Origin: Verrucomicrobiia bacterium
GTDB lineage: Bacteria; Verrucomicrobiota; Verrucomicrobiia; Palsa-1439
Reading direction: 5' to 3'
Assembly (NCBI GenBank): GCA_035501175.1
Contig: DATJWQ010000046.1
Coordinates: 9,701-73,700 of the forward strand
DNA length: 64,000 bases
The position numbers were made by a program, and so were the translations under genes. Each line of letters starts with the position of its first letter. The first letter of the stretch is position 1. Below, piece by piece: positions 4,152 through 58,342 of the stretch. Under the pieces are notes generated by a model, which saw only the letters and a program-made list of their open reading frames with translations, had not been told where the DNA came from and ran no database searches.

Positions 4152-5069
4152 ATGCGATTTGTCCAACGCCTGATGCTGTACCTCCTGCTCGTGCTTGGGG
4201 CGGTCACCTGCCTGGTGCCGTTGCTGTGGATGATTTCCACGGGATTGAAACCGATCGAGCAAACCATGTCCCTCCCGCCAACGTGGATCCCGTACCGGCT
4301 CTACGTCGAGAAGAACGGCACGCTCACGGAAATCCCTCAGGCCGATATCGATAAGTATCCGGCCGACAAGATCGTGAAGAAATTCGCGCCGCGCTGGGAG
4401 AATTTTGCCGGTGCCATCCGCGCGATGCGCATCTTCTGGACGTGTCTGCGCAATACGCTCGTGTTGTGCGTGCTCACCGTCATCGGCACCGTCGCGTCGA
4501 GTTCGCTCGCGGCGTATGGATTTGCGCGAGTGGACTGGCGTGGACGGGACAAGGTGTTCATGGTCTGCCTGGCGACGATGATGATCCCGTTTCCCGTGGT
4601 GATGGTGCCGGTGTACTGTCTGTTCCGCTGGCTGGGCTGGATCGGCACGCTCAAGCCCTTGTGGGTCGGCTCGTTTTTTGCCGGGGCGTTCAACGTGTTT
4701 CTGCTGCGGCAGTTTTTCCTGACCATTCCGAAAGACCTGGCCGAGGCGGCGCGCATTGATGGCTGCAGCGAGTTCCGCATTTTCTGGCAGATCATCCTGC
4801 CGTTGTGCCGGCCCGCGCTGATGGTCGTCGCGCTGTTTCAGTTCATGTACACGTGGAATGATTTTCTCGGGCCGTTGATCTATCTCACCAAGCAGGAAGA
4901 CTACACACTCGCGCTGGGCCTGCAATTTTTCCAGAGCGAGCACGGCGGGACGGAGTGGCATTATCTGATGGCCGCCAGCACGCTCGTCGCCCTGCCGATC
5001 ATCATCCTGTTCTTCTTCACCCAAAAGACCTTCATCGAGGGCATCTCGATGACGGGAATCAAGGGGTGA
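4152..5069 (+). CDS. carbohydrate ABC transporter permease (MalG/UgpE-like)
   Basis: EAA loop AARIDGCSEFRIFWQIILP; multi-TM; immediately downstream of the first permease gene. Confidence 0.85.
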   Translation: MRFVQRLMLYLLLVLGAVTCLVPLLWMISTGLKPIEQTMSLPPTWIPYRLYVEKNGTLTEIPQADIDKYPADKIVKKFAPRWENFAGAIRAMRIFWTCLRNTLVLCVLTVIGTVASSSLAAYGFARVDWRGRDKVFMVCLATMMIPFPVVMVPVYCLFRWLGWIGTLKPLWVGSFFAGAFNVFLLRQFFLTIPKDLAEAARIDGCSEFRIFWQIILPLCRPALMVVALFQFMYTWNDFLGPLIYLTKQEDYTLALGLQFFQSEHGGTEWHYLMAASTLVALPIIILFFFTQKTFIEGISMTGIKG

Positions 5070-45441: not shown

Positions 45442-47040
45442 TCAAGGCGCTCTTTCCGGATGAGGATTGAGCTCGTTTAATGCCATGGCTACTTCGGCGG
45501 AGACTTCCGAATGGGTATCGGCAAGTTTCTGGAGAACGGGGACGATGAGATGGGCCTGAGACTTGAATTCTGCCAGTGAAATGATAGCGGTCTTGCGCAC
45601 CTGCTGGTCTTCGTCATTGATGGCGGCAATCAGGGCGTCAACGCTCGCCTTGTCTTCGGCGTGCACATGACCCAACGCCCAAGCCGCCAGATACCGTGTA
45701 TACGAGTCGCTGGTCTTGAGGAGGCGAATTAGAGCCGGGACAGCGGTTGTGACGGATGCACTACTTTTCATATTGGGGTTGAGGCTTGCCAACCCGATAA
45801 TGGCACCTCGCTGAATGGTCAAATTGGTGTTCGATAAAGCCGCGATGACCGGGGCATATTCACCGACTTGAACCAACTCGCTGGCGGCTCGGCCGGAGTC
45901 CTTTTCGTCATTGAGCTGTTCCGTCAGGCGCGCAATTTCCGGCTGGATGGACTCCGGCGGCCTCTGCAAACACTCGCGCACCAGCCTGGGAAACTCGCCG
46001 TCCTGGGAAGCCGCGTCGACGGTGATGGCAATGTCTGCGCCGGGCAAGAGTTCGTGATACACCTGCTCGATTGTGATTTTCTCTTTTGATCCCAACGGTT
46101 GCCACTCGCCGACGACGCCAGCCGGATAGTCGTGATGTTCCACCGGGTTTAACTCCCAGCGCGGGGTTTCAAAATGCGCCGAGATCCGGAGATAGATCTG
46201 ACCCTTCGAGCCGGGAACGGTGTTCTGCATGAAAGATGAGTCCACCGAGGTCTCCAACAAGTTGTCGGTAGCGGATCGGTTAACGGAAGCGCGAGGGATG
46301 CTGCCGGATGCGATGCCACTGTATCCTTTGACCTCCAGGACAATCTGCTTCTGGATGGCCGACACTCGGTCGGCGATTGCCTGTTTCAAATGCTCGTCAT
46401 ATATACGATAGTTACCTTTGTTCTTGGCCCACCAATCCCACCACCAGCGGACAAACTGCTCGTGTTTTTCCCCGGTCGAATACTGGTAAAAGTTCGCGTA
46501 GTCGCGCCCGGTGATTTGACACAGGATTTGGGCGGCTTGATCCCGGATGGTCGTTTTAGTGCCCGGATAATCGAGCATGATAATCAACGGCTCGATGACG
46601 CTGGGGTCGCTGATCTCGTGCCGATTGGCCAAGTCTCGCAAGAGATACATCCGCCCCTCATTCCACTGGCACAACCGGCGCAAGGCCGCTTCCGTCGGCG
46701 TATCGGCGGACGTTGGCTGGTAGAGCACTCGGTCGACGGTGTCGGCGGAGATGCAGTCGCCATTGGTGGTGCACAACGACAGCTCGCGGGCGGCCGCGAC
46801 GGCGATTCGATTACGGTACGCTGGCGACGGATCCTGAATTGTGTCGACCCAGTTCCCCGTCCATCTGCTTCCTCCCTTTTCGCCAGGAAACGGAGCATGC
46901 AGCAACGATTCCAAGCTTTGCTCGGTATTCGTTGCCGGGGATTTTGTAGCGGCAGCTTCCTCGGCATGGGCGGCAACGGAGTACCGCATCAACGCTCCAC
47001 CCCAAACGAGTGCGAGAGCGAGGAGGAGTTTAGATGTCAT
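45442..47040 (-). CDS. secreted HEAT-repeat (PBS-lyase-like) protein
   Basis: Signal peptide MTSKLLLALALVWGGALMRYSVAAHA. C-terminal HEAT-like repeats (YTRYLAAWALGHV..., QQVRKTAIISLAEF..., SAEVAMALNEL). Lower GC than the core genome. Confidence 0.7.
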   Translation of the reverse strand: MTSKLLLALALVWGGALMRYSVAAHAEEAAATKSPATNTEQSLESLLHAPFPGEKGGSRWTGNWVDTIQDPSPAYRNRIAVAAARELSLCTTNGDCISADTVDRVLYQPTSADTPTEAALRRLCQWNEGRMYLLRDLANRHEISDPSVIEPLIIMLDYPGTKTTIRDQAAQILCQITGRDYANFYQYSTGEKHEQFVRWWWDWWAKNKGNYRIYDEHLKQAIADRVSAIQKQIVLEVKGYSGIASGSIPRASVNRSATDNLLETSVDSSFMQNTVPGSKGQIYLRISAHFETPRWELNPVEHHDYPAGVVGEWQPLGSKEKITIEQVYHELLPGADIAITVDAASQDGEFPRLVRECLQRPPESIQPEIARLTEQLNDEKDSGRAASELVQVGEYAPVIAALSNTNLTIQRGAIIGLASLNPNMKSSASVTTAVPALIRLLKTSDSYTRYLAAWALGHVHAEDKASVDALIAAINDEDQQVRKTAIISLAEFKSQAHLIVPVLQKLADTHSEVSAEVAMALNELNPHPERAP

Positions 47041-47044
47041 TGTA

Positions 47045-47938
47045 TCAATCGATGATTCCCCAAGCCAAATAGGGATTGGAAATGTTGCGGATGGTGTCCG
47101 CGGGGCGTTCTTCGAGCACATTTTGTTTCGGGTCTGAAGGTTTAAAATCGACATCCACCCTGATGTACGGACAGCGGCGATGAACAGACGTTCGATGCTT
47201 TGCGGTCGAAAGGCCACCCTCCGTGGTAAAAACCTTAGAAAGCTCTGCGCGTGTCATTCCGGGCTTAATCTTCTGACACTCGGTGAGAATGTTGGAAATC
47301 TGCTTCGTGAGATATTCGTCAACGCCGTTGCCAGTGGATTTCCGCCCATTCGTTTCGTCGAGTGTCTTCTCTGCCTCCCAACTCACGAGCCTGTCGTGCT
47401 CATCAAACTGTAGTGTGACCTCGTTCAGCCATGACGGTGTTTGGGCGGCCGTCTCGTGCTGCGAGACCTGCACTCTCCCATCGTTGTTCGTCGTGGGCGG
47501 TAGCACGTCGAGGGTGACTTCGTCACTCCAATACGTCTTCCGGCTATCGATCGGCGTGAAGCCCATACGAAACGAGACTGTCTTTTGGGAAATCGGTCCC
47601 GAGACGAGCATCTCCAACTGGTTCGTATATACGCCACCGGGCGGGAATTCGACATTCCTCGCCACGTTTCTCGTACACTCTCCGACAATCCAGGAGACGT
47701 TTGTGTTGCTCGTCTTCCATTCGTCCTGCCAACGGCAACTCATCACGCGCACGGTTTGATTGGTTGCTGTCGGATTCTCAACGCGCAGTGTGACCGGGAA
47801 AACTTCTTTGATGCGAACCACGGTCCTGGAAGGTGTGACAACAACCCGAAGTGAGTCTGCGTCGGCGGCGCCTGCAGACAAAGCCGCCAATGCGCCACTC
47901 CAAACGAGCGCGAGGCAACAGATGATTTTGGGGTTCAC
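47045..47938 (-). CDS. secreted mosaic protein: family signal peptide, unique N-terminal domain, conserved roughly 90-aa C-terminal domain shared with the 50982-51890 product
   Basis: GTG start encoding VNPKIICCLALVWSGALAALSAGAADA. C-terminus ILTECQKIKPGMTRAELSKVFTTEGG...CPYIRVDVDF...NPYLAWGIID. About 85% nucleotide identity to 50982-51260. Confidence 0.6.
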   Translation of the reverse strand: MNPKIICCLALVWSGALAALSAGAADADSLRVVVTPSRTVVRIKEVFPVTLRVENPTATNQTVRVMSCRWQDEWKTSNTNVSWIVGECTRNVARNVEFPPGGVYTNQLEMLVSGPISQKTVSFRMGFTPIDSRKTYWSDEVTLDVLPPTTNNDGRVQVSQHETAAQTPSWLNEVTLQFDEHDRLVSWEAEKTLDETNGRKSTGNGVDEYLTKQISNILTECQKIKPGMTRAELSKVFTTEGGLSTAKHRTSVHRRCPYIRVDVDFKPSDPKQNVLEERPADTIRNISNPYLAWGIID

Positions 47939-47945
47939 AGCCGTC

Positions 47946-48494
47946 CTATTTCTTTCGCGACTCAAATGTTTTTTGCGACTCGCGTCCTTCCTGTGATTCG
48001 AGTTCCCTGATATACACCCCGTCTTCGATGTAGACAAACCGCAGCGTCTCGGTATCAAGAACAAAATCCGTCCACGCCATGCGTCCCCACGGCACTGCGA
48101 TGAATAACATCTTTTCGTTGAGCCAAGCGTGGCGAATCTCGTAACTCGCCTGATCAAGCAGCTCCACGCGGACACACCGATTCGTGTCGGCGGAATCAAA
48201 GATATAAAGCCGCGTATCCCAGGGCCCGGCGCGCCTGGTATCCGGCTTTTCTTCGACCAGCCACCGTGAATTAAATTCTGTGTTATCTTTCGGCAGGGAA
48301 GCCAATTCAGCCAGTTGTTCGCCCGTCAAGGGAATGCGCTTGATTTTGATTTTCTGCAAACTGGCCCCAGAAGGTGTGGAATACAACACGGCATCCTGTC
48401 GCGGTGATGGAACCGTCGTGCATCCGAGCAGACCGCCGCTCCAAACGAGCGCGAGGGCGAGGACTTTGAGAGTGTGGCGCGCAGTGCTTCGCAT
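47946..48494 (-). CDS. lipoprotein, hypothetical
   Basis: Signal with lipobox (LKVLALALVWSGGLLGCT). Lower GC (about 50%). Confidence 0.55.
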   Translation of the reverse strand: MRSTARHTLKVLALALVWSGGLLGCTTVPSPRQDAVLYSTPSGASLQKIKIKRIPLTGEQLAELASLPKDNTEFNSRWLVEEKPDTRRAGPWDTRLYIFDSADTNRCVRVELLDQASYEIRHAWLNEKMLFIAVPWGRMAWTDFVLDTETLRFVYIEDGVYIRELESQEGRESQKTFESRKK

Positions 48495-48500
48495 TGTGAG

Positions 48501-49265
48501 TTATGGCGTCTTTAGCGGCACGGCAAATGGCTTCCCCGTATTCAGATCCATCTCCTGCCCATCAACAACAGACCTGCTTACCTTCTTGGCGGTGAGATCC
48601 ATCCATATACTTCCCAGCTTCTGCGTCTTTGGATGCCGTATATCAAGCCGCAAGATGCCATCGGTTAGGTCTATCGCTTCGACCAGAGGCATTACCAATC
48701 CTCCGCCCGGAGCCGGGGCGTCCGAGAAATAAAATTGCGGAAGGGACTGCATTAATTGTATTCGATTAGCTGTTATGCGCTGATTGAACTCGTGACTCAG
48801 CTTCTCGGTGTTGATCTCTTTCTCAAACTGAGCAATGGCGGTGGTGCTGGAATTGGTGTCAGGCAACCCGAAGTAACTGCTCGACCAAACCAGAACGCCA
48901 GGGCCGACAGTGAACCCCTTCATTCCAGAGCGATCGGAAACGTAAAAGGAATGTTCTCCGTCAATGAACCACCATTTCTTGGTATGGGGATCGTCAACTT
49001 CCAGGATCGAAAACCTCTCCGGTATAAGACTTCCGGGGTCGGGCTTGGGTACGACTTGATAGACAGCCCGCCTTACCGTAGTTGTCTCAGTTTTGCATTT
49101 GGTTGCAGGCGGCCCGGAAGAACCGGGCACGATCAACTTGATAGTGCTATCGGCCCACGGCTCGATAAATTCAGTTTTCATGGGCGTTGCGTTGGAAACG
49201 CTATCTCCCATCGAATACACCAAGGTTGCCACCAAGAGAAAGAAGATCACAGCAGTGTATTTCAT
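48501..49265 (-). CDS. secreted hypothetical protein
   Basis: Signal peptide MKYTAVIFFLLVATLVYS. GC about 48%, the lowest in the window. Confidence 0.55.
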   Translation of the reverse strand: MKYTAVIFFLLVATLVYSMGDSVSNATPMKTEFIEPWADSTIKLIVPGSSGPPATKCKTETTTVRRAVYQVVPKPDPGSLIPERFSILEVDDPHTKKWWFIDGEHSFYVSDRSGMKGFTVGPGVLVWSSSYFGLPDTNSSTTAIAQFEKEINTEKLSHEFNQRITANRIQLMQSLPQFYFSDAPAPGGGLVMPLVEAIDLTDGILRLDIRHPKTQKLGSIWMDLTAKKVSRSVVDGQEMDLNTGKPFAVPLKTP

Positions 49266-49378
49266 TGTTTCAATTCGGTTCTGCCTTCATTGGACACCTG
49301 GTTTGGGCGTTCGTTCGCTTACGCGCGCCAAAGAAGCGGATTGCTTTGCCGTTCGCTCCGCTGCGTCATCAGACGGCG

Positions 49379-49993
49379 TCATGGCTTCTTGACCGCAATT
49401 TTGACCTTGGGCAGTTGAAGCGTTCCCTGCCAGACGTAGTAGTTGAGGGAACTGGGGTGGTTGGTCGGGGGGCGGAACGTGGCCGACAAGTAGTAGTCGT
49501 TGGTAGCGCCAGGCCGAATGTCCCACAAGTCATCGGGGCCTACCAGTATGCTTACCCCGTCGGGCTTCGTCGAGTCAGAGCACAAACCGGGATCGGCTTG
49601 CAACCGCAGGGTGGAATTGCACGGCAACGTCACCCAGTACGGATTCGTCGGCACGTAGGCGTCAATTGGAGGGGATTTGTACGGGATGGCTTTGTTGAGA
49701 CCATCGTGCATTTCAAAGTGCAGGCCGGCGGACATACGGAAACAAATCTCGATCGGGTTGCGCCAGACATCGGTGCAGATGTGTTGCAACTCCAGATAGA
49801 CTCGGGCGTGTCCCCACATTTTGGTTCTGCTGTAATACTCCGCATCGTAAATGAGCAGGCGTCCGCGAAGCGTGTACCCGGCGGGATCACTGACGGGTTC
49901 CGACCAATCGCCGACGGCAATGAGGTTTGTGTCGGTCTGGGCGAAGGCGCAGGGAGGGCCGGCGAGCAACAGGAATAAGACGACGGACTTCAT
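49379..49993 (-). CDS. secreted hypothetical protein homologous to the N-terminal domain of the 50982-51890 product
   Basis: Signal MKSVVLFLLLAGPPCAFAQ. Shared blocks NLIAVGDWSEPVSD, GYTLRGRLL, VYLELQ, TLPCNSTLRLQ and WQGTLQLPKVKI. Confidence 0.6.
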   Translation of the reverse strand: MKSVVLFLLLAGPPCAFAQTDTNLIAVGDWSEPVSDPAGYTLRGRLLIYDAEYYSRTKMWGHARVYLELQHICTDVWRNPIEICFRMSAGLHFEMHDGLNKAIPYKSPPIDAYVPTNPYWVTLPCNSTLRLQADPGLCSDSTKPDGVSILVGPDDLWDIRPGATNDYYLSATFRPPTNHPSSLNYYVWQGTLQLPKVKIAVKKP

Positions 49994-50216
49994 AATGTGC
50001 GAACGCCATTAGACCTCTGATGAAACACCAAGAAAAGCACAAAGGCCAGCCTCCACGTTGAGTAATTTGCGAGCCTCGCGGCTTGAGGTGCGGAGAACTG
50101 CCGCGCTTGGCAACCGCGGCTACAGTTCCCGCTTGATGATGCGGCTATCTCCCGCCCGCAGCCCGCTCTTGCCCTCTGAAACCCGCCCCTGCCACTCAAG
50201 TCCACCCCTGTACCGT

Positions 50217-50801
50217 CTAGTCTGATATAATGAAGTCTGCAAAATTGGACTGCAAAGTGCCAACCCAAGTGTTCCACCCCACCCAAACAAACCCGCTGTT
50301 ATTGTGGTGTTGGTGGGTTTCCGAGAGTTGAGCAGCGATACGGTAGGCCCCTTTCTCTAGTTTCATCGTCCATTCCTTTGTTTGCGGACACCAATACTGG
50401 CTAAGCCTGACCCTCAAAACATGAACTGCACCCGCTTGAAGTCCAACTGCATAGTCATCAATCCGCCCTGAGACACTAGCCGGGCCGGTTGGCTCAAGTT
50501 CTCTGCGATGTCCTTGAGCATCCAGGAGAACAAGATGAATGGCTGTAGGAAAGAGACTACGTCCGTTTCCGAGGGTCATACCGAGATTCAAGAATACGTC
50601 GTTCGTGCCGACATTCCGCACCGCAATGTCAAACTCAGGGTCTTGCCCTGTTTTAAGTTGGGTATACACGGGAGAAATTGCGATTTGTAATCCATTGCTG
50701 GCGGTTCCCCAAAACTCAGGTGCGTCGTTGACCAATGAGGTTGCATAGGAGCATGGAACGGAAACGATCAGCAGCACGGCAAGGCTCAGAGTCTTAATCA
50801 T
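50217..50801 (-). CDS. secreted hypothetical protein
   Basis: GGAGG ribosome-binding site; signal peptide MIKTLSLAVLLIVSVPCSYA. Confidence 0.55.
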   Translation of the reverse strand: MIKTLSLAVLLIVSVPCSYATSLVNDAPEFWGTASNGLQIAISPVYTQLKTGQDPEFDIAVRNVGTNDVFLNLGMTLGNGRSLFPTAIHLVLLDAQGHRRELEPTGPASVSGRIDDYAVGLQAGAVHVLRVRLSQYWCPQTKEWTMKLEKGAYRIAAQLSETHQHHNNSGFVWVGWNTWVGTLQSNFADFIISD

Positions 50802-50828
50802 TGTTGCCTCCTTCTGTCCGTCGATTCA

Positions 50829-50978
50829 TCAATCCGTTCTTGCCGTCACGGACAAATAACTCTGTGCTGCGTTCGTCGAGACCGGTGCATTGGTTTCGTC
50901 AGCGCGGGCAACACGGGCACAGCCAGACAAGCCGACGCCCCAAACCAGCGTGAGGGTGAGGAGGAGTTTAAATGTCAT
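50829..50978 (-). pseudogene. 49-codon ORF encoding only a family-type lipoprotein signal peptide (MTFKLLLTLTLVWGVGLSGCA...); probable gene remnant or micro-lipoprotein
   Basis: Begins with the same conserved cassette (atgacatttaaactcctcctc...) found at the starts of the 45442-47040 and 56657-57964 genes, then stops after 49 codons. Confidence 0.35.
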
Positions 50979-50981
50979 TGT

Positions 50982-51890
50982 TCAATCGATGATGCTCCAA
51001 GCCAAATACGGATTGGAAATCTTGGTGATGGTGTCTGTGGGGCGCTCTTCTAGGACATTCTGTTTCGGGTCTGAAGGTGTAAAATCGACATCCACCTTGA
51101 TGTACGGACAGCGGCGATGAACAAACGTTCGATGAGCCGCGGTTGACATGCCGCCTTCGGTTGTGAAGACCTTCATCAGGTCGGCGCGGGTCATGCCGGG
51201 CTTGATCGTCTGGCATTCCGTGATAACGTCCAGAATCTGGTCCATCAGGCCCTTGTCGATTTCAGATTTCCGGGTCGTGGCAGGCGGGACCTTGACTCTC
51301 GGCAGCACCAACGTCCCGTGCCAGACGTGTCCGCGTGCAAGTTCCTTTCGCATCGCCTCGATGTCGGTAGAGTTGGACTTGGGCACGGTGAACGTCCCGG
51401 AGAGGAAGCGGTCGCCAGGAGCGCTGGGTGGAAGGAACCAGAACGCTGCAGGGAGCTGAATCGCCCAACCGGGGCCTTTGGGGATTCCCCAGCCATTGAC
51501 GGAAACGCGGAAGCGCAGCGTGGAATCGCAAGGAAGAGTCAGTGTGGTGATCGCGTCAGGCAGTGGACCGATAATGTCCGCCTCTGTGGGCGTTGGTGGC
51601 GGTGTCTTCCCCGCAGCATCGACAACCTCGCAATCCAGCGCCCGCTCGCTGTAGTCCACAAGTACCGAGGCGAGGATGCGGGATAGGTTCTGCAACTCGA
51701 GGTACACGACAGCCGTACGGGTGCCATTGTATGGCGCGTCTTCGGCAAGGATGAGTCTTCCGCGAAGCGTGTAGCCATTATCGCTCACGGGCGCCGACCA
51801 CTCGCCGACGGCGACGAGGTTGGTATGGGTTTGTCCGAGGGCACCTGAAGAGCTGGCGAGCAGCAGGAACAAGACGATGGACTTCATCAT
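50982..51890 (-). CDS. secreted mosaic protein: N-terminal domain shared with the 49379-49993 product plus conserved C-terminal domain shared with the 47045-47938 product
   Basis: Signal MMKSIVLFLLLASSSGALGQ. C-terminus ITECQTIKPGMTRADLMKVFTTEGG...CPYIKVDVDF...NPYLAWSIID. Confidence 0.65.
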   Translation of the reverse strand: MMKSIVLFLLLASSSGALGQTHTNLVAVGEWSAPVSDNGYTLRGRLILAEDAPYNGTRTAVVYLELQNLSRILASVLVDYSERALDCEVVDAAGKTPPPTPTEADIIGPLPDAITTLTLPCDSTLRFRVSVNGWGIPKGPGWAIQLPAAFWFLPPSAPGDRFLSGTFTVPKSNSTDIEAMRKELARGHVWHGTLVLPRVKVPPATTRKSEIDKGLMDQILDVITECQTIKPGMTRADLMKVFTTEGGMSTAAHRTFVHRRCPYIKVDVDFTPSDPKQNVLEERPTDTITKISNPYLAWSIID

Positions 51891-52158
51891 GGGCGATTAC
51901 CCTTCATACCAGTCGAGCGTGCGAATGCCATTAGACCGCTGATGAGACGGCGAGGAAAGCACAAACGGCGGCCATTGTTGCCGGGCGCGCGCGGAAGGCG
52001 CGGGCGAGGAGAGGGGCGGTCGGCATGAAGTACGGAGCTGGGTCCTCTTACTGACTGACGATAAGAGCGCAGCCGGAGATTGTTCACCGAGTCGTGAACG
52101 CGGCTTTATTGTCTGAGTGCCGTTTCGTCCTCTCGGCTGCGCTCCCGATCCTGAATCG

Positions 52159-54030
52159 TCAGGGCGTGACCTGCATCCGATAGAATCGTTGGGGTCCCAA
52201 GGCCCCGCCGGAGTTGGTCAGGATGATCAACCCACCGGGGCTATTGCTCAGGACGACGCCCGAGACGTTTGCCCAACTGCCCGTCGTCATTGAACTCCGG
52301 GTTTGCAATTGGTAATCGTCCCCCGCAACGGCCTGGGCGGAGACGGCGACGCCATTCGGGATCGCCGCAATCCCGCAGATCTGATTTGTCGTCCCGCGGG
52401 TCGGCGCGAAGTTGGCTGTCAGGATCTCGCTGTTCGTCGCGGTGAACGTATAACACGGCAAAGTGCTGACCACGTTGCTATTCGGATCAGTCCAGCTCAC
52501 GAAGTTGTAACAATCGTCCGGGATCGCGAAGATCTGTACGGGGAAGCAGCAACGGATGGTGCCGCCGCCAGTGGTCCAGCCGCCATTCGGTTGCGCGGAA
52601 GCGGTACCGGTCGTATACGTACACGCAATCAGGCAGGTGAGCGTTGCTCCATAGCTGCCCGTCCCTGAATAGTTGCCGGAATGCACCAAGAGCGTGTAGA
52701 CACCGGAGACACTGAATGTGACGTTACTGGCTGTACCCGGACCGATGCTGAACAATTTGTTGCCGGTTGGGTCGTACAGGTCGAACTCCGAACCGCTGAA
52801 GCCGCTGGTGCTGATTATCACCACGTCGTTGCTGCAGCCGTCGATTTGATAGGCATCCATCTCCGCTCTGTTCGTGGTGGCGCCACTGACAGTTTGTCCG
52901 CAAACGATCGGTTGACCATCGCACCCGCCGCCAATGATCGACTGAATGCTCAACTGATAGTTGCCGGTGCCATTGTAGGAGGCAGCATGCACGAGGATTG
53001 TGTACGTACCGCTGTTGGTCAGGGTCATGTTGATGGCGGTGCCGGCGTTGCAGTTGGGTGAAGCTACGGTGGCGAGGTATTGCCCGCTAGGACTATAGAT
53101 GTCCGCGTTCATCGATTGGTAAGGTGAAAGGCAATCGAGCGGCCCGTACAAGGCGAACGACAGGTCCTGCCCGGCTGCGCCAACGTAGCTGTAGGCGTTG
53201 ATCTCACTGTTAAAAACCGTGTTGCTCGCAATTGGCTGGCCACAGGTAATGGGTGTGCCGTTACACCCACCCTCGATAGCTGATTGGATACTCAACTGAT
53301 AGTTGCCGGTGCCATTGTAGGAGGCAGCATGCACGAGGATTGTGTACGTACCGCTGTTGGTCAGGGTCATGTTGATGGCGGTGCCGGCGTGGCAGTTGGG
53401 TGAAGCTACGGTGGCGAGGTATTGCCCGCTAGGACTATAGATGTCCGCGTTCATCGATTGGTAAGGTGAAAGGCAATCGAGCGGCCCGTACAAGGCAAAC
53501 GACAGGTCCTGCCCGGCTGCGCCAACGTAGCTGTAGGCGTTGATCTCACTGTTAAAAACCGTGTTGCTCGCGATTGACTGGCCGCAAACAATGGGTGTGC
53601 CATTACACCCGCCGTCGATGGCTGACTGGATACTCAACTGATAATTGCCGGTGCCATTGTAGGATGTGCAATGCACAAGAATTATGTAGCTGCCGGTATT
53701 CGTTAGGGTCATGGTGAGAGCAGCACCGGTGTTGCAGTTACCCGATGTAAGGGCGGCCAGATGCTGTCCGCTAGGGCTATAGATGTCCGCGGTCATTGAT
53801 TGGTAAGGTGAAAGGCAATCGAGTGGTCCGTACAATGCGAACACCAATTCCTGCCCCGCGGTGCCGGCGTAGGTGTACTGGTCGACTTCGCTGTTGGCAA
53901 CGGTGTTGCTTGCGATTGGTTGTCCGCAGGTGATGGGGGTTTGGGCGCGGACGGCCCTCGCCCAGAAGGCCAGCCCGAACACCAGCAGGACGTAGAAATT
54001 GAACGCGCGGTTTGTCGAAGATGTTTTCAT
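52159..54030 (-). CDS. secreted protein with four tandem PPC-like (pre-peptidase C-terminal-like) domains and a C-terminal tail
   Basis: GGGAGA ribosome-binding site. Signal MKTSSTNRAFNFYVLLVFGLAFWARAVRA. About 110-aa units, three nearly identical (ITCGQPIASNTVFNSEINAYSYVGAAGQDLSFALYGPLDC...DIYSPSG...GTYTILVHAASYNGTGNYQLSIQS). Confidence 0.65.
   Translation of the reverse strand: MKTSSTNRAFNFYVLLVFGLAFWARAVRAQTPITCGQPIASNTVANSEVDQYTYAGTAGQELVFALYGPLDCLSPYQSMTADIYSPSGQHLAALTSGNCNTGAALTMTLTNTGSYIILVHCTSYNGTGNYQLSIQSAIDGGCNGTPIVCGQSIASNTVFNSEINAYSYVGAAGQDLSFALYGPLDCLSPYQSMNADIYSPSGQYLATVASPNCHAGTAINMTLTNSGTYTILVHAASYNGTGNYQLSIQSAIEGGCNGTPITCGQPIASNTVFNSEINAYSYVGAAGQDLSFALYGPLDCLSPYQSMNADIYSPSGQYLATVASPNCNAGTAINMTLTNSGTYTILVHAASYNGTGNYQLSIQSIIGGGCDGQPIVCGQTVSGATTNRAEMDAYQIDGCSNDVVIISTSGFSGSEFDLYDPTGNKLFSIGPGTASNVTFSVSGVYTLLVHSGNYSGTGSYGATLTCLIACTYTTGTASAQPNGGWTTGGGTIRCCFPVQIFAIPDDCYNFVSWTDPNSNVVSTLPCYTFTATNSEILTANFAPTRGTTNQICGIAAIPNGVAVSAQAVAGDDYQLQTRSSMTTGSWANVSGVVLSNSPGGLIILTNSGGALGPQRFYRMQVTP
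52870..53530. repeat. near-identical roughly 330-bp tandem repeats (two full copies) inside the PPC-domain gene; a third more diverged copy follows to about 53850
   Basis: 52890-53220 and 53221-53550 differ by only a few bases (for example gtgccggcgttgcag versus gtgccggcgtggcag). Confidence 0.8.
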
Positions 54031-54588
54031 GATCCGTTTCTCCCTACGATGATTTTGTCGGTTCACACTTGTCGTACGTTGTCGCTGCGCCGGGCGAATT
54101 CTGTTCGCACGGGAAATTCAGATCTCCTTTTCCGGAACGCAGAATGACGGACAGGCAGGGTGAAACAGTGGGATGAAGACACAGGAATTCCTCGCCCTCA
54201 TGGTTTCTCGCCTTCCTTATCCTCGCCTCGGTGCAGACGCTCCCAGGCCGGTGCTTTCCTGACTCGGCCTGGCGACACAACTCGCCATTGGTTATGTATT
54301 GCTCCTAGCCTGGCGCAGACAGGGCACCGGGTCGGGCCGTAGAAAACAGGCCCTCAAACGGGGTGACGTGGCTTATACGCGTATGGAGGTCATAATTGCA
54401 AGACATTTTGGATGACGGTTTCGTGATAACTGGCTGGGCGTGCCGAAGAAGAGAAGGACATGAAGACGCCACGGCGGAGACGCTTCGGTCGGAGGAAGTG
54501 CGCGGTCGGGAGACCGGTGCACAACGAGCGGCACGGCTCGGAGAGCCGCGCCAGAGGCGGGCAAGCCGTGGCTACACCGGCGACGCGC

Positions 54589-56082
54589 TTATCGTCGGCA
54601 GGTTTCGCGGAAGGCGCGGGCGAGGATGGCGGCGTTGGTGGCGATGAGGAAGTTGTGTTCGGTCCAGGCGCGGCCCGAGTTGCTGAGGCGTTGACGGAGA
54701 GCCGGATCGGCGGCGAGGCGTTGGACGGCGGTGGTGAGGTGGGCGGGGTTGGATGGGTCGGCGATGATACCCGTGACGTCGTGGGTGACGGCTTCCATCG
54801 GGCCGGCGGTGGGGCTGGAGATCACGGGCAGGCAACGGGCGAAGGCTTCCGGGATGACGTTCGGGATGCCGTCGCGGTCGCCTTCGGGATCGACGATGCC
54901 GGTGTGCCAGAAGATGTCGGCCCAGAGATATTGATCGTTGACCTGATCGGGCGGGAGCGGGCCGGTGAGCGTGACGAAGTCGTGAAGGCCGGTGCGGTCG
55001 ATTTGCTGTTGAAGTTCGCGGCGGAGCGGGCCGTCGCCGACGATTGTTGCTACAAACGGCACGCCACGGGATTTCAAGAGCGAGCAGGCGGCGAGTTGGT
55101 GGACGTGACCCTTCTTCGGGACGAGACGGCCGACGGAGAGGAGTCGGATCGGGCGTGAGGTCGAGGTGGTGGCGTCGCGTTTCGGGAGAGGCGGAAGTTT
55201 TTCCAGGCCGCGGCGGGCAAGGACGATTTTCACGGGCGCGCCGTGGGCGCGGTCGCGGAGGTATTGCGCGGCGGCGTTGGTGGTGGTGTGGACGAAGGCA
55301 GCGGCGCGCAATTTGGGTTCCAAGAACGCGTCGCCGCCATGACGATAGATGTCGTAGGCGTGACCGCCGAAGCTGAACGGGACGTTGCAGAGTCGGGCGA
55401 GGATGGCGGCGGCGGTGGCGGGCGCGGTGGCCCAGACGCCGTGGATGATGTCGGGTTTGTGTTGGCGGAAGCGGCGGGCGCGGCAGATGGCGAAGACCAC
55501 GGCCCAGATGGTTGACCAGAAATTCTCGGGGTTGGTGGGTCGGTAGCGGCGGAAGAGATGCCAGCCGTCGCGGAGGAGGGCGGGGTCGCGGAGGAGTTCG
55601 CGGGGCAGGGCGATGAGGACGGCGATGGATTCCCACCAGCGGAACGTGTCGACGGGGATGTCGGCGATTAGTGATGAAGAACCCGCCTTCGCCACACGAC
55701 TGGCTACGGCGGGCAAGCCCTCACCCTGACCCGCCTTCGCCACACGACTGGCTACGGCGGGCAAGCCCTCTCCCTTATCCGGCAAGGGCGAGGGGACTCT
55801 CGTCTGTGGCGTCGTTTGGTGAGTGGGAGATTTGCGCTTTGAATTTTGACCAGGGAGAAGCTGTGCCAGGTCGGCGGGGCGCGGGGGGAAGAGCGAGTGG
55901 ATTTCGATGCGGATGCCGTGGTCGCGGAGGCCGGCGAGTTCGCGGCGGAAGAAAGTCTGGGAGAGCACGGGGTAGCGCTCGAAGATGTAGGCGACGGTGA
56001 GGCCACCGACATCCAATGTCGGGGTGAATACGGGGGGGTTAGTTTTCAATCGTGGAGCGTATTCAGCGGGTGCGTCAGTCAT
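54589..56082 (-). CDS. glycosyltransferase family 4 with a low-complexity N-terminal insert containing a 15-aa duplication
   Basis: GT4 C-terminal motif (EAFARCLPVISSPTAGPMEAV). The insert GEGLPAVASRVAKAG occurs twice, encoded by a 45-bp tandem duplication around 55690-55790. Confidence 0.7.
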   Translation of the reverse strand: MTDAPAEYAPRLKTNPPVFTPTLDVGGLTVAYIFERYPVLSQTFFRRELAGLRDHGIRIEIHSLFPPRPADLAQLLPGQNSKRKSPTHQTTPQTRVPSPLPDKGEGLPAVASRVAKAGQGEGLPAVASRVAKAGSSSLIADIPVDTFRWWESIAVLIALPRELLRDPALLRDGWHLFRRYRPTNPENFWSTIWAVVFAICRARRFRQHKPDIIHGVWATAPATAAAILARLCNVPFSFGGHAYDIYRHGGDAFLEPKLRAAAFVHTTTNAAAQYLRDRAHGAPVKIVLARRGLEKLPPLPKRDATTSTSRPIRLLSVGRLVPKKGHVHQLAACSLLKSRGVPFVATIVGDGPLRRELQQQIDRTGLHDFVTLTGPLPPDQVNDQYLWADIFWHTGIVDPEGDRDGIPNVIPEAFARCLPVISSPTAGPMEAVTHDVTGIIADPSNPAHLTTAVQRLAADPALRQRLSNSGRAWTEHNFLIATNAAILARAFRETCRR

Positions 56083-56656
56083 TCCGTGCGGAGGATAGTA
56101 TGTTTGCGGGGGTTATTTCAATGGTGGCGGGAGACGATGGGTGAGAATCGGCAGACTCGTCCTCAGATTGGAGTGATGGAGTGAGGGGGTACTGGAGTTT
56201 TGGACGCGGATCCTCCCTCAATTCGGATGCTTTCGGCTCCACGCAGCCCCGAACTCCGAACGAGTTCGCGAGTCCTGCGGAGGAATTCGGGGTAAAAGTT
56301 CGCAGAGGGCGCAGAGAACACCCGGACTGATCTTTGCCCGATTCGGTAAGGGGCCAAATCAGGCAAACGGCACCCGGGGGCGGTGGCGGAGTGGGGCGCG
56401 GCGGGCAACGCCTTTGCAGAAAGGAGGGACCCCGACCTCGACCGTTCCGCAGCCCCGACGTACACAGGCCATCCGCGTTGTGTCAATACTAAGGACTGAC
56501 CCCTTTATGACCCCTTTACTAAGGACTGACCCCTTTACGGGGACGGTTGCGTAAAACGTTGACCCCCCTTGACCGCCGAATTCAACGGGAATCGTCGTTT
56601 GCTCCTCCGCCCGTTGTAGGGGCGCTTCTGCGAAGCGCGCGCGATTGGGCAAATCT

Positions 56657-57964
56657 TCATTCACTCGTAGCTATTCTCTTGAGTGCAGACCGCGCGGCAC
56701 GTCGCACATTCTCGTCGGGATCGACAAGAAGTTGCTTAAGATCTGGGACGGCTGCAATTGCGACCGCTCCTAAACGTCCCAATGCATCAGCGGCATGCAT
56801 TCGAACGATGTACTCCGGATCGTGCAGCAGGGCGACCAACCCGGGCGCGGCATCCTTTGCTCCCGGGCCGATCTTACCAACAGCAACCGCACCCCAGTCA
56901 CGAACGAGATTGCGATAACTCCGGCTTTGATCCTGGAGCGTTGAGGTTAGCAAAGGCACTGCTGATTCGGCGTGCGGTCCAATTGCACCAAGGCAATATA
57001 TAATCGCAAGGCGTCCCTGTAAGTTCTCTGTTTGATATAGCCGCATCAAGGCGGGAACGGCTTCTGCTGCATTTGCACCTCGGTCCGCTATTGCGCGGAC
57101 TGCGAGCACACGAATCTCCGCGTCTTTGTCCTTCATGAGATCGATGAATATGGAGACGCTCCTTGTGTCGTTGGGAAGTGACACGGATAATGCGTCCGCA
57201 GTCATATACCGCGCACGGTTATCCAGTGCCTCGTCGCGAAGCAAATTCAGTAGCGAGGGGATTGCCTCCTGAGCTGCGCGGCCCATCCGGCCAAGGGCGC
57301 CGAGGGCCGTAACACGCAGCTTGGTGTCCCGGAGGGCTTGCGCTAACTGTGGGGCTGCTTGCACGGCCGACGGCCCCACGGAATCCCAACACTCAATAAT
57401 CTTCAGTCGTGTCTGTTCATCGCTGGTTTGATAGAGTGTCATCAGCACAGGCATTGCTTCCACGGCCTTCTCATGAAACGTGCCCAAGGTAGTGATAGCC
57501 AGATCCCTCAGGTCCGGGTCGTGCTCTTTTAGGAGTTCGACATAGGCCGGAAGCGCGTCCGGATCACGAGGATAGACTCTGTCCAAGGCGTATGCGGCCG
57601 ATAGGCGCACTTCCTTCGGCTGGCTCTTGTCTTGCACCATTTTAATCAACGCGGGCGCGGCCGCCTGCCCGGCCTCAGCGATCTTGCTAATGCCGTAGAG
57701 AGCTTGGTCAACATTGGTGCTTTGGGCAGTAATGATAGTCCCGGGAACAGCTTGGCCTGCTTCATTGGTTGAGAGGCTCGAAAGCGGCGGGCTGGCCGCA
57801 TGCTCGTCTTGAGTCACACCGAAGGAAGATTGGAGCCGAACGGCGAACAGCCATATCACGAGCACCACTAGATTAGGCACTGCATGCCTGTTTTTGTGTG
57901 CCCCAAAGCCAAGCATGCTGACGTTCCAAACGAGCGCAAGGGCGAGGAGGAGTTTGGGGTTCAT
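56657..57964 (-). CDS. secreted HEAT-repeat (PBS-lyase-like) protein
   Basis: Family signal peptide MNPKLLLALALVWNV... Multiple HEAT-like units (EVRLSAAYALDRV, RDLAITTLGTF, RVLAVRAIADRG, VRMHAADALGRLG, VRRAARSALKRI). Confidence 0.7.
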   Translation of the reverse strand: MNPKLLLALALVWNVSMLGFGAHKNRHAVPNLVVLVIWLFAVRLQSSFGVTQDEHAASPPLSSLSTNEAGQAVPGTIITAQSTNVDQALYGISKIAEAGQAAAPALIKMVQDKSQPKEVRLSAAYALDRVYPRDPDALPAYVELLKEHDPDLRDLAITTLGTFHEKAVEAMPVLMTLYQTSDEQTRLKIIECWDSVGPSAVQAAPQLAQALRDTKLRVTALGALGRMGRAAQEAIPSLLNLLRDEALDNRARYMTADALSVSLPNDTRSVSIFIDLMKDKDAEIRVLAVRAIADRGANAAEAVPALMRLYQTENLQGRLAIIYCLGAIGPHAESAVPLLTSTLQDQSRSYRNLVRDWGAVAVGKIGPGAKDAAPGLVALLHDPEYIVRMHAADALGRLGAVAIAAVPDLKQLLVDPDENVRRAARSALKRIATSE

Positions 57965-57997
57965 GGCTTTGTGGGGCATACAGCCGGCCTCTTGAAA

Positions 57998-58342
57998 TTA
58001 CAACAGGTGCGCGACGACGAATAGAAAGAGCAGAAACGTTAGAAGTAACAAGGGCACGGCGGCCACGGCGAACGTTTGAAGCGCGGGTTTCACGTCGCCC
58101 CGAATAGCTTGCAGCACGGCTCCGAGCACCAGGAACGGTGCGCACAACGCGTAGGCCGCTAGCAACACGTCTGTGGTGTGATCAATCCTGGAGGCATTTA
58201 CTCCCGTGAAATGAATGATAATCGGATCGCCGAGGAGAATACGAAAAACCAAGTAGAACGGGAAAACGCTGACGACATACAGTTTGAATGGAATCAGCAC
58301 CCAATTGGTCCATTTGGCTTTCGTGAATGGGGAGCGGCACAT
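57998..58342 (-). CDS. small membrane protein, hypothetical
   Basis: 114 aa with three predicted TM helices; preceded by the conserved leader motif. Confidence 0.45.
   Translation of the reverse strand: MCRSPFTKAKWTNWVLIPFKLYVVSVFPFYLVFRILLGDPIIIHFTGVNASRIDHTTDVLLAAYALCAPFLVLGAVLQAIRGDVKPALQTFAVAAVPLLLLTFLLFLFVVAHLL

Follow-up and report, generated by a model that had tools for sequence, protein, structure and literature searches.

The C-terminal domains of the type IX secretion system (T9SS) of Bacteroidota are beta-sandwiches of about 70-80 residues at the extreme C-terminus of Sec-exported proteins, with varied passengers and a conserved last strand, and the PEP-CTERM signals of the exosortase system combine a PEP motif with a transmembrane helix and a basic cluster. 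Streptococcal alpha C/Rib and staphylococcal SasG/Aap are surface proteins whose tandem repeats evolve in concert and vary in copy number. Furthermore, pre-peptidase C-terminal (PPC) and collagen-binding domains bind substrates in characterized proteases (PMC6168687, PMC3327674). Here, a minus-strand gene at positions 52159-54030 of a 64,000-nucleotide stretch from a soil Verrucomicrobiae bacterium (contig DATJWQ010000046.1; the whole stretch is referred to as the window) was analyzed. The first-pass annotation of this DNA had mainly claimed near-identical PPC-like repeats, which was right in substance, while its aside on the C-terminus turned out to be the interesting part. The encoded protein ends in an unannotated FN3-like domain, here called the tail, which is found at the extreme C-terminus of many exported Verrucomicrobiota proteins with unrelated passengers. 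Moreover, the gene is followed by a new conserved structured element that is tightly linked to genes ending in this tail.

The tail covers residues 545-623 (52162-52398, minus strand; stop codon at 52159-52161) and is characterized by an FYR...P ending, in relatives usually FYR-x4-P. The C-terminal 150 residues had been regarded in the first-pass annotation as one possible export or sorting signal; the quoted ending ...PQRFYRMQVTP was found in the protein, as was the motif string given for the repeats, but this part consists of two domains, namely an InlB B-repeat-like domain (Pfam Flg_new_2, PF18998) at residues 470-544 (52399-52623, minus strand) and the 79-residue FN3-like tail. In Pfam scans the former was recognized clearly (E 8.8e-9, 35.7 bits against a cut-off of 23.6, profile positions 5-71 of 73), whereas the repeat units remained below the threshold for PPC and the tail, scanned alone or as 66 aligned relatives, gave no Pfam or NCBIfam match. 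The InlB B-repeat-like domain, which differs from the Listeria B-repeat in organism and protein context, is also common in tail-bearing relatives. A homologue search with the 80-residue tail alone returned nothing and a search with the tail profile only short fragments; an exhaustive phmmer search with the tail yielded 192 representative clusters at E≤1e-3. The statistics given here cover the best 150 of these 192 clusters together with the orthologues, i.e., 157 relatives. The tail ended at most six residues from the C-terminus in 145 of them; exactly five residues followed the (F)YR motif in 120 of these 145 terminal tails, the last residue was proline in 124, and 60 ended in ITP. Very frequent passengers ahead of the tail were GloVer 'choice-of-anchor' repeats (TIGR03803); others comprised GH16, BACON, Ig and cadherin-like/Big_9 domains, a PL7 alginate lyase combined with Ig and PKD domains, a GH15-like domain, an NHL propeller and PPC units. 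All named carriers belonged to Verrucomicrobiota, and N-terminal signal peptides were present in the four complete tail proteins inspected (4/4). The mostly C-terminal position behind many unrelated exported passenger domains is what is generally expected of a sorting domain.

Compared with C-terminal sorting domains known elsewhere, the tail matched neither type: no above-cut-off match to the T9SS type A sorting domain (TIGR04183/PF18962) was found at the C-terminus, and the C-terminal sequence ...GGALGPQRFYRMQVTP shows none of the PEP-CTERM features (TIGR02595), i.e., no PEP motif, hydrophobic helix or basic cluster, and no NCBIfam match. The likeness to T9SS domains lies in size, beta-sandwich fold, position, varied passengers and the conserved last strand. 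With regard to the exosortase system, GloVer repeat proteins bear this tail where other family members bear recognized anchors, as the family name 'choice-of-anchor' expresses. Literature searches on the tail motif, Verrucomicrobia sorting domains and RNA motifs found nothing relevant. By analogy with the known systems, the tail would serve for recognition or anchoring once the protein has been exported by Sec, in a role comparable to that of the T9SS C-terminal domain or PEP-CTERM. The earlier suspicion of a sorting signal has gained circumstantial support for the last domain, from its terminal position and diverse passengers, and a sorting role is plausible; the tail stays a candidate only, because it occurs in tandem copies, has a generic fold and lacks a known machinery. 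A diversity-generating retroelement, with the tail as variable region followed by a hairpin, was considered and rejected: the divergence among tails is ordinary and a template repeat did not come to light, although reverse transcriptases were not searched for.

The 3' element comprises 85 nt (52062-52146, minus strand) and is separated from the stop codon by 12 nt. Its fold has a GC-rich outer stem of 12-13 bp (GGGAGCGCAGCCG / CGGCUGCGCUC) around two hairpins, with a minimum free energy of -51.6 kcal/mol (z -4.08). The element was present in nine of nine orthologous loci, and in each of them its conservation exceeded that of the coding sequence. No match at E≤0.1 to this element or to the 5' leader described below was found in Rfam release 15 (window positions 47000-58000, both strands). 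A metagenome scan with the outer-stem pattern alone gave at least 120 stretches, and application of a covariance model built from eight orthologues to the stretches listed left 53 true copies among these matches. In pair counts over 50 copies, 95.6% of the cells were paired, as compared to 30-52% in slid controls, and eight pairs had changes on both sides, a number that none of 500 shuffles reached (shuffle mean 2.7). Since the many U.G and G.U pairs on the sense strand would be mismatches on the opposite strand, the structure reads on the mRNA-sense strand. The outer stem is followed by CUCUUAUCGUC or a CUCCCC-type sequence instead of a U run, and the terminator scan gave no minus-strand site at the element; without a U-tract after the stem it is not a canonical intrinsic (Rho-independent) terminator. 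A pseudoknot between the loop of hairpin 2 (CUCGG) and CCGAG at the stem junction was inspected by eye and dropped, as no co-variation supported it.

The link between element and tail was evident from both sides. Among the matches listed, 47-48 of the 53 copies lay 3-70 nt, mostly 5-16 nt, downstream of an open reading frame (ORF) ending in [FY]YR-x3-5-P, i.e., in the tail, one copy followed an ORF ending in PEP-CTERM, and 3-4 had no upstream gene assignment. Conversely, when the tail genes of the sampled loci were evaluated, 30 of 37 had the element. The copy at the PEP-CTERM gene (L027, 1194-1279) has, about 60 nt upstream, an ORF that ends in a PEP-CTERM signal (VPEPTTVTLVGLGLFGALVGLRKRNS; TIGR02595, 24.3 bits against a cut-off of 16) and bears no FYR tail. 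Another copy (L043, 1053-1141) is preceded only by a 57-aa ORF with a tail end (...ARYYRVRLVP), which may be the remnant of a tail gene whose 3' element was kept. Six copies were observed on one strand of a single 21-kb contig (Ga0335081_10004963; L129 and L120), each after a different tail gene, including GH15-like and GloVer-like ones, so that tail genes can be clustered; several such genes on one contig speak in favor of a sorting domain. A selenocysteine insertion sequence or another stimulator of stop-codon readthrough was rejected as identity of the element: the stop codons vary (TGA, TAA, TAG), the gap ranges from 3 to 70 nt and the conservation is not codon-like. Likewise, a viral origin was discarded, the seven viral-contig matches being mostly 100-nt stretches on both strands; no covariance-model search of these viral loci was made, and two of the matches coincide by eye with marine metagenome matches that the model did not recover.

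The 3' element would be a cis-acting RNA, involved in transcript end formation, stability or factor binding, that is co-inherited with the tail. In its strongest form, this proposal would make the tail the cargo tag of an undescribed outer-membrane translocation or surface-anchoring pathway in Verrucomicrobiota and the 3' RNA, which also follows at least one PEP-CTERM gene, a dedicated cis element that couples expression, stability or localization of the cargo mRNA to that pathway, both being one co-inherited module; we put this forward tentatively and consider it rather unlikely as it stands. The main rival reading, which we regard as doubtful but a serious contender, takes the tail for no more than a structural FN3-like spacer or cap and the element for no more than a terminating or stabilizing hairpin copied along as the family expanded, with no dedicated sorting pathway involved. 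The generic FN3-like fold, the tandem tail arrays, the position of the element at the place of a terminator and the lack of any machinery linked to the gene are in line with such a structural tail, and the link between element and tail could be due to common descent of a module of tail plus untranslated region. By contrast, a terminal position in 92% of the relatives, the fixed proline end and the very different passengers speak against a mere spacer. Moreover, conservation of the element exceeds that of the coding sequence even when tail subfamilies with only about 30-40% identity are compared; its multi-branch shape is conserved, it has no U-tract, and in one case it follows a PEP-CTERM gene without a tail. 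Several findings nevertheless weigh against a sorting module: two to ten tandem tail copies were present in 33 of the 157 relatives, a pattern not seen in known sorting domains but in keeping with an FN3 module of purely structural function; among the neighbors of the loci, which are not conserved, no candidate sorting machinery was found; the element was absent from 7 of the 37 tail genes; the invariance of the outer stem is partly an ascertainment effect, because the scan pattern fixed this stem; and the covariation support is modest, because most of the element is conserved in sequence.

As for the protein that carries the tail in the window, it is probably a Sec-exported, non-enzymatic, disulfide-stabilized modular protein with a PPC array, an InlB B-repeat and the FN3-like tail. 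The ORF starts with ATG and encodes 623 residues. An in-frame GTG at 54066 would extend the protein by 12 residues; this start is unlikely, since all orthologues begin with MKTSSTNRAF at the ATG, 9 nt upstream of which AGGGAGA is located. Residues 1-30 (53941-54030, minus strand) were read from the sequence as a Sec-type signal peptide (MKTSSTNRAFNFYVLLVFGLAFWARAVRAQ, followed by TPI) without a lipobox. Together with the 22 cysteines, this signal peptide bears out the earlier description as a secreted protein. The signal peptide is nearly invariant in the 10 orthologues compared (MKTSSTNRAFN.CFLLAFGLAFWP.AVRAQ), an unusually high conservation as compared to the mature parts, which are only 50-70% identical. 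Only two lysines are present in the 623 residues, one of them within the signal peptide. The signal peptide is followed by three type-A PPC-fold units, i.e., U1 (residues 31-144, 53599-53940), U2 (residues 145-258, 53257-53598) and U3 (residues 259-372, 52915-53256), by the diverged type-B unit U4 of 98 residues (residues 373-470, 52621-52914), all on the minus strand, and by the InlB B-repeat and the tail. Pfam and NCBIfam scans found no peptidase or other catalytic domain in the protein, and no further tail or PPC genes were found in the 64-kb window.

The designation of the repeats as PPC-like proved right at the level of fold and superfamily. One window unit scored 14.2 bits against PF04151 and the whole protein 15.6 bits, both below the cut-off of 25.9. 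However, 33 of 85 non-redundant homologous units matched PF04151 (E≤0.01; best 5.8e-10), and many of the 72 proteins that carry the array have precomputed PF04151 matches. In comparison with the PDB, the unit profile detected the collagen-binding/PPC domains of collagenases (5iku, 1.2e-8; 5sv5, 4.2e-5) and also matched the C-terminal domains of the subtilases KP-43 and Tk-SP as well as PliG (4dy3, 8e-5). An AlphaFold2 model of U3, calculated with the unit alignment as input, is an eight-stranded beta-sandwich (pLDDT 95.0), for which Foldseek identified the pre-peptidase C-terminal domain of the B. anthracis collagenase (5sv5) as the top PDB match (E 4.7e-6, TM 0.66/0.71), followed by Tk-SP, ColG, ColH and KP-43. 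From profiles and this predicted model the units have a PPC fold. The beta-sandwich is shared with the PPC/collagen-binding domains of collagenases (ColG s3a-s3b, ColH s3; PDB 5iku, 1nqd, 3jqw, 5sv5), and the motifs D/E-x-D-x-Y-x-F, D-l-Y, G-t-Y-x-i-x-V and G-x-Y-x-L are common with the PPC domains of clostridial and Bacillus collagenases; U2 and U3 have SEINAY where the family consensus reads E-x-D-x-Y. Tandem use is shared with ColG s3a-s3b, and both the collagenases and this protein are secreted. Unlike in collagenases, there is no peptidase domain, and the array is placed directly after the signal peptide rather than C-terminal to a secreted peptidase, as is typical for PPC; moreover, it comprises 3+1 units with conserved cysteine pairs that remain below the Pfam threshold. 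Two weaker assignments were given up: Y_Y_Y (PF07495) reached its 32.3 bits for the whole protein only by adding up partial matches to GTYTILVH...GNYQLS (profile positions 28-56 of 65), and Por_Secre_tail, Kre9_KNH, Gp5_C and other weak Pfam matches were noise within the PPC units.

By analogy to the collagenase domains, the PPC array would be a multivalent ligand-binding module. In homologues (P0046, P0049, P0061 and others), N-terminal arrays of PPC units were found fused to RHS/YD repeats, Calx-beta, BACON, Ig or P-domain modules, which suggests that the array is a reusable targeting or binding module. It has to be considered that the units might instead act as inhibitors or chaperone-like modules, comparable to PliG-type lysozyme inhibitors or protease pro-domains. 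PliG was among both the profile (4dy3, 8e-5) and the fold matches (4dzg), and PPC domains in proteases are often removed after secretion. This appears very unlikely: the protein has no peptidase domain, the PliG matches were weaker than those to collagen-binding domains, and the fusions to BACON, Ig, RHS and Calx-beta point to targeting or binding. The subtilase C-terminal beta-jelly-roll (KP-43, 1wmd; Tk-SP, 3afg) and PliG (4dy3, 4dzg) are similar by fold and profile, but they are single domains attached to or acting on enzymes, whereas the units described here form a stand-alone repeat array. Two points count against the proposed binding array: the window units lie below the Pfam PPC threshold, and the PPC fold also serves non-binding roles.

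With respect to the repeats themselves, the first-pass annotation had reported near-identical copies of 330 bp, or about 110 residues, differing by a few bases, along with a diverged third and fourth copy. The tandem repeats are real, but their period is 342 bp (114 residues): Tandem Repeats Finder (TRF) detected 2.9 copies with 86% matches (score 1410), the repeat finder agreed on the period, and splitting of the protein at the recurring P-I-x-C-G-Q motif delimited three 114-aa units and one diverged unit. U2 and U3 are identical at 319 of 342 nt (93.3%). The 23 differences are distributed unevenly, with 6 in the first 27 nt, 15 in the last 34 nt and only 2 in the central 281 nt (unit nt 27-308), so that the claim of a few differing bases holds for this core but not for the whole unit. 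Within the core, the identical runs are 74, 105 and 100 nt long. The last 34 nt of U2 resemble U1 (5 differences). As a clean recent duplication would match along all 342 positions, U2 and U3 share a homogenized core tract rather than being the product of a clean 342-bp duplication. Of the copies described as diverged, U1 is 76% identical to U2 and U3 at the nucleotide level, and U4 is a real but distant copy (BLASTP against U3: 32% amino acid identity over 107 residues, E 3e-12).

Near-identical units invite the question whether the array is an expansion artefact of the assembly, or whether the true gene has three units. No difference was found between the window and JGI contig Ga0335083_10000327, and an ENA MEGAHIT contig (L002) holds the identical four-unit gene. 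Another ENA contig (L001, ERZ27256576) is exactly 342 bp shorter, with 10 kb of identical flank on each side, and its product (P0001) has 509 residues; the junction lies inside the 100-bp run common to U2 and U3. This contig, otherwise identical in DNA, and the fact that all three assemblies derive from short reads are the grounds for suspecting an artefact, which is nonetheless highly improbable. U2 and U3 differ at 23 positions and the longest identical run, 105 nt, does not reach k=141, so that short-read assembly can resolve the four-unit form. Additionally, this form is identical in two assemblies, repeats are far more often collapsed than expanded by assemblers, and near-identical internal unit pairs are common in homologues from unrelated samples (P0006, P0012, P0013, P0016, P0019). 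The three-unit form is either a true recombinant allele or an assembly collapse, and the latter alternative detracts from any claim of variation within the population. A second, shorter repeat was observed in the adjacent minus-strand glycosyltransferase gene (54589-56082): a 48-bp sequence encoding GEGLPAVASRVAKAG is present in two tandem copies (96% identical, 55681-55776) in the window and in one copy in L001 and L002, resulting in products of 497 and 481 residues, respectively, from otherwise identical DNA. Since an array of this size fits within single reads, repeat differences between the sampled populations are real.

Comparison across the family, in which a hidden Markov model of the unit detected two to eight tandem units per protein, revealed different modes of evolution for the two unit types. 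Type-A units were 75-97% identical within their own protein as compared to 55-73% to the best unit of any other protein. By contrast, U4-type (type-B) units were 73-85% identical between proteins and 33-49% identical to the type-A units of their own protein, i.e., they track orthology. When units 1 and 2 were compared in eight orthologues of the same architecture, 43 columns varied between species, mainly at unit positions 31-50 and 62-77; at these columns, unit 1 and unit 2 of the same protein were 74% identical, whereas identity across proteins was 20%. The first approximately 25 residues of each unit are conserved by position instead, which agrees with the extent of the U2/U3 DNA tract. These identities show concerted evolution of the type-A units, with a core of about 280 bp repeatedly homogenized by gene conversion or unequal crossing-over, and the near-identical U2/U3 pair is the latest homogenized tract. 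The cysteines of loops 1 and 2 co-occur (both in 72 units, neither in 77, discordant in 18), and head and tail cysteines are both present in 143 of 167 units. This co-occurrence suggests that the two fast-diverging loops are disulfide-linked. They would then form one disulfide-tied surface that is kept alike on all type-A units of a protein, and it is from the sameness of this surface that we infer a multivalent binding role. The in-frame repeats of several hundred base pairs, near-identical within a gene, most alike among internal units and variable in number, resemble those of alpha C/Rib and SasG/Aap. Those proteins, however, have another fold and belong to other phyla, and here homogenization is confined to a core tract with the end unit U4 as a stable orthologue.

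The repeats had also been taken as a recent duplication typical of phase- or length-variable surface proteins. Length variation is borne out across the family and, possibly, within the population (L001), and the duplication corresponds to the 281-bp homogenized tract, but phase variation is not supported because the period is in frame (342 = 3 x 114), frameshift-prone repeats are missing and there is no convincing invertible segment. TRF found no short simple repeat in the gene, and the only inverted repeat that could delimit an invertible promoter or segment is a weak 20-nt pair 2.5 kb apart. A related proposal is that the array is a contingency locus in which gain or loss of units or changes of the loops provide antigenic or length variation against phage, predators or host. 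The varying copy number among homologues and in L001, the two hypervariable loops that are homogenized within a protein but only 20% identical between orthologues, and the neighboring glycosyltransferase gene, which also differs in repeat number between assemblies, would fit this proposal. Yet the 64-kb window contains no frameshift-prone tract, invertible promoter or silent cassettes, the unit length is in frame and the within-population variation depends on one contig pair; a contingency locus therefore seems quite unlikely.

The gene is also preceded by a conserved non-coding region of about 300-370 nt (54032-54405, minus strand), in which a long leader and the ribosome-binding site (RBS) AGGGAGAAACGGATC come after TTGCAA-N17-GTATAA, a sequence resembling a promoter. 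In nhmmer searches with a profile of eight orthologue upstream regions, this region was found in all PPC-family loci (E 1e-82 to 1e-120) despite differing neighbors. RNAalifold predicted 48 pairs for it, 4 with compensatory changes, so that covariation in the predicted structure is weak. Only four of the eight profile loci have about 75 additional nt ahead of the RBS (window, L005, L006, L010), and in L004 (leader at 4319-4671) about 1.3 kb with minus-strand ORFs is inserted between leader and RBS. The neighboring genes differ in all nine orthologous loci, by which a conserved operon is ruled out. In the window, two paralogous small secreted proteins (204 and 302 residues, 38% identical, no Pfam match) are encoded next to the PPC gene on its downstream side (49379-49993 and 50982-51890, minus strand); upstream of both, a stretch of about 55 nt is conserved (81% identical; 50000-50051 and 51922-51973), and two more ORFs with signal peptides (194 and 254 residues) lie between and beyond them. 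The 20-nt inverted repeat (52057-52076 and 54577-54596, 17/20 complementary) brackets leader, gene and 3' element, with one arm located in the outer stem of that element and its partner overlapping the stop codon of the glycosyltransferase gene. It is probably due to chance, because the comparable region of L004 has seven such pairs.

Conserved 5' and 3' flanks among neighbors that differ in every genome, together with the bracketing repeat, the six same-strand copies on one contig and the imperfect palindrome formed by the element, could also be explained if the 3' element were a DNA recombination site, attC-like or resembling a miniature inverted-repeat transposable element, and the tail genes mobile cassettes. 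We consider this extremely unlikely. General cassettes would not be expected to keep company with a single protein domain, R''/R' boxes of attC sites are lacking, no integrase or transposase is linked, and the flanking repeat may be a chance occurrence given the seven short inverted repeats in the L004 region. Furthermore, the G.T-compatible changes are on the coding (top) strand, whereas integron attC sites fold on the bottom strand. An RNA element at the 3' end of tail genes remains the preferred reading.

Taken by itself, the PPC array is ordinary, yet it provides a clean example of concerted evolution with hypervariable, putatively disulfide-linked loops, from a soil phylum that is abundant yet has been little studied. 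The tail and the RNA element may be new: a domain without a Pfam entry and a 3' RNA motif without an Rfam entry travel together, one marking a large and diverse set of exported proteins at their C-terminus and the other marking the 3' ends of their genes. Both are searchable by computer and testable in cultured Verrucomicrobia, and they offer a handle on the export and display of polysaccharide lyases, glycosidases and binding proteins in Verrucomicrobiota. If tail and RNA are functionally linked, they would represent a rare case of a protein sorting tag that is paired with an mRNA element.

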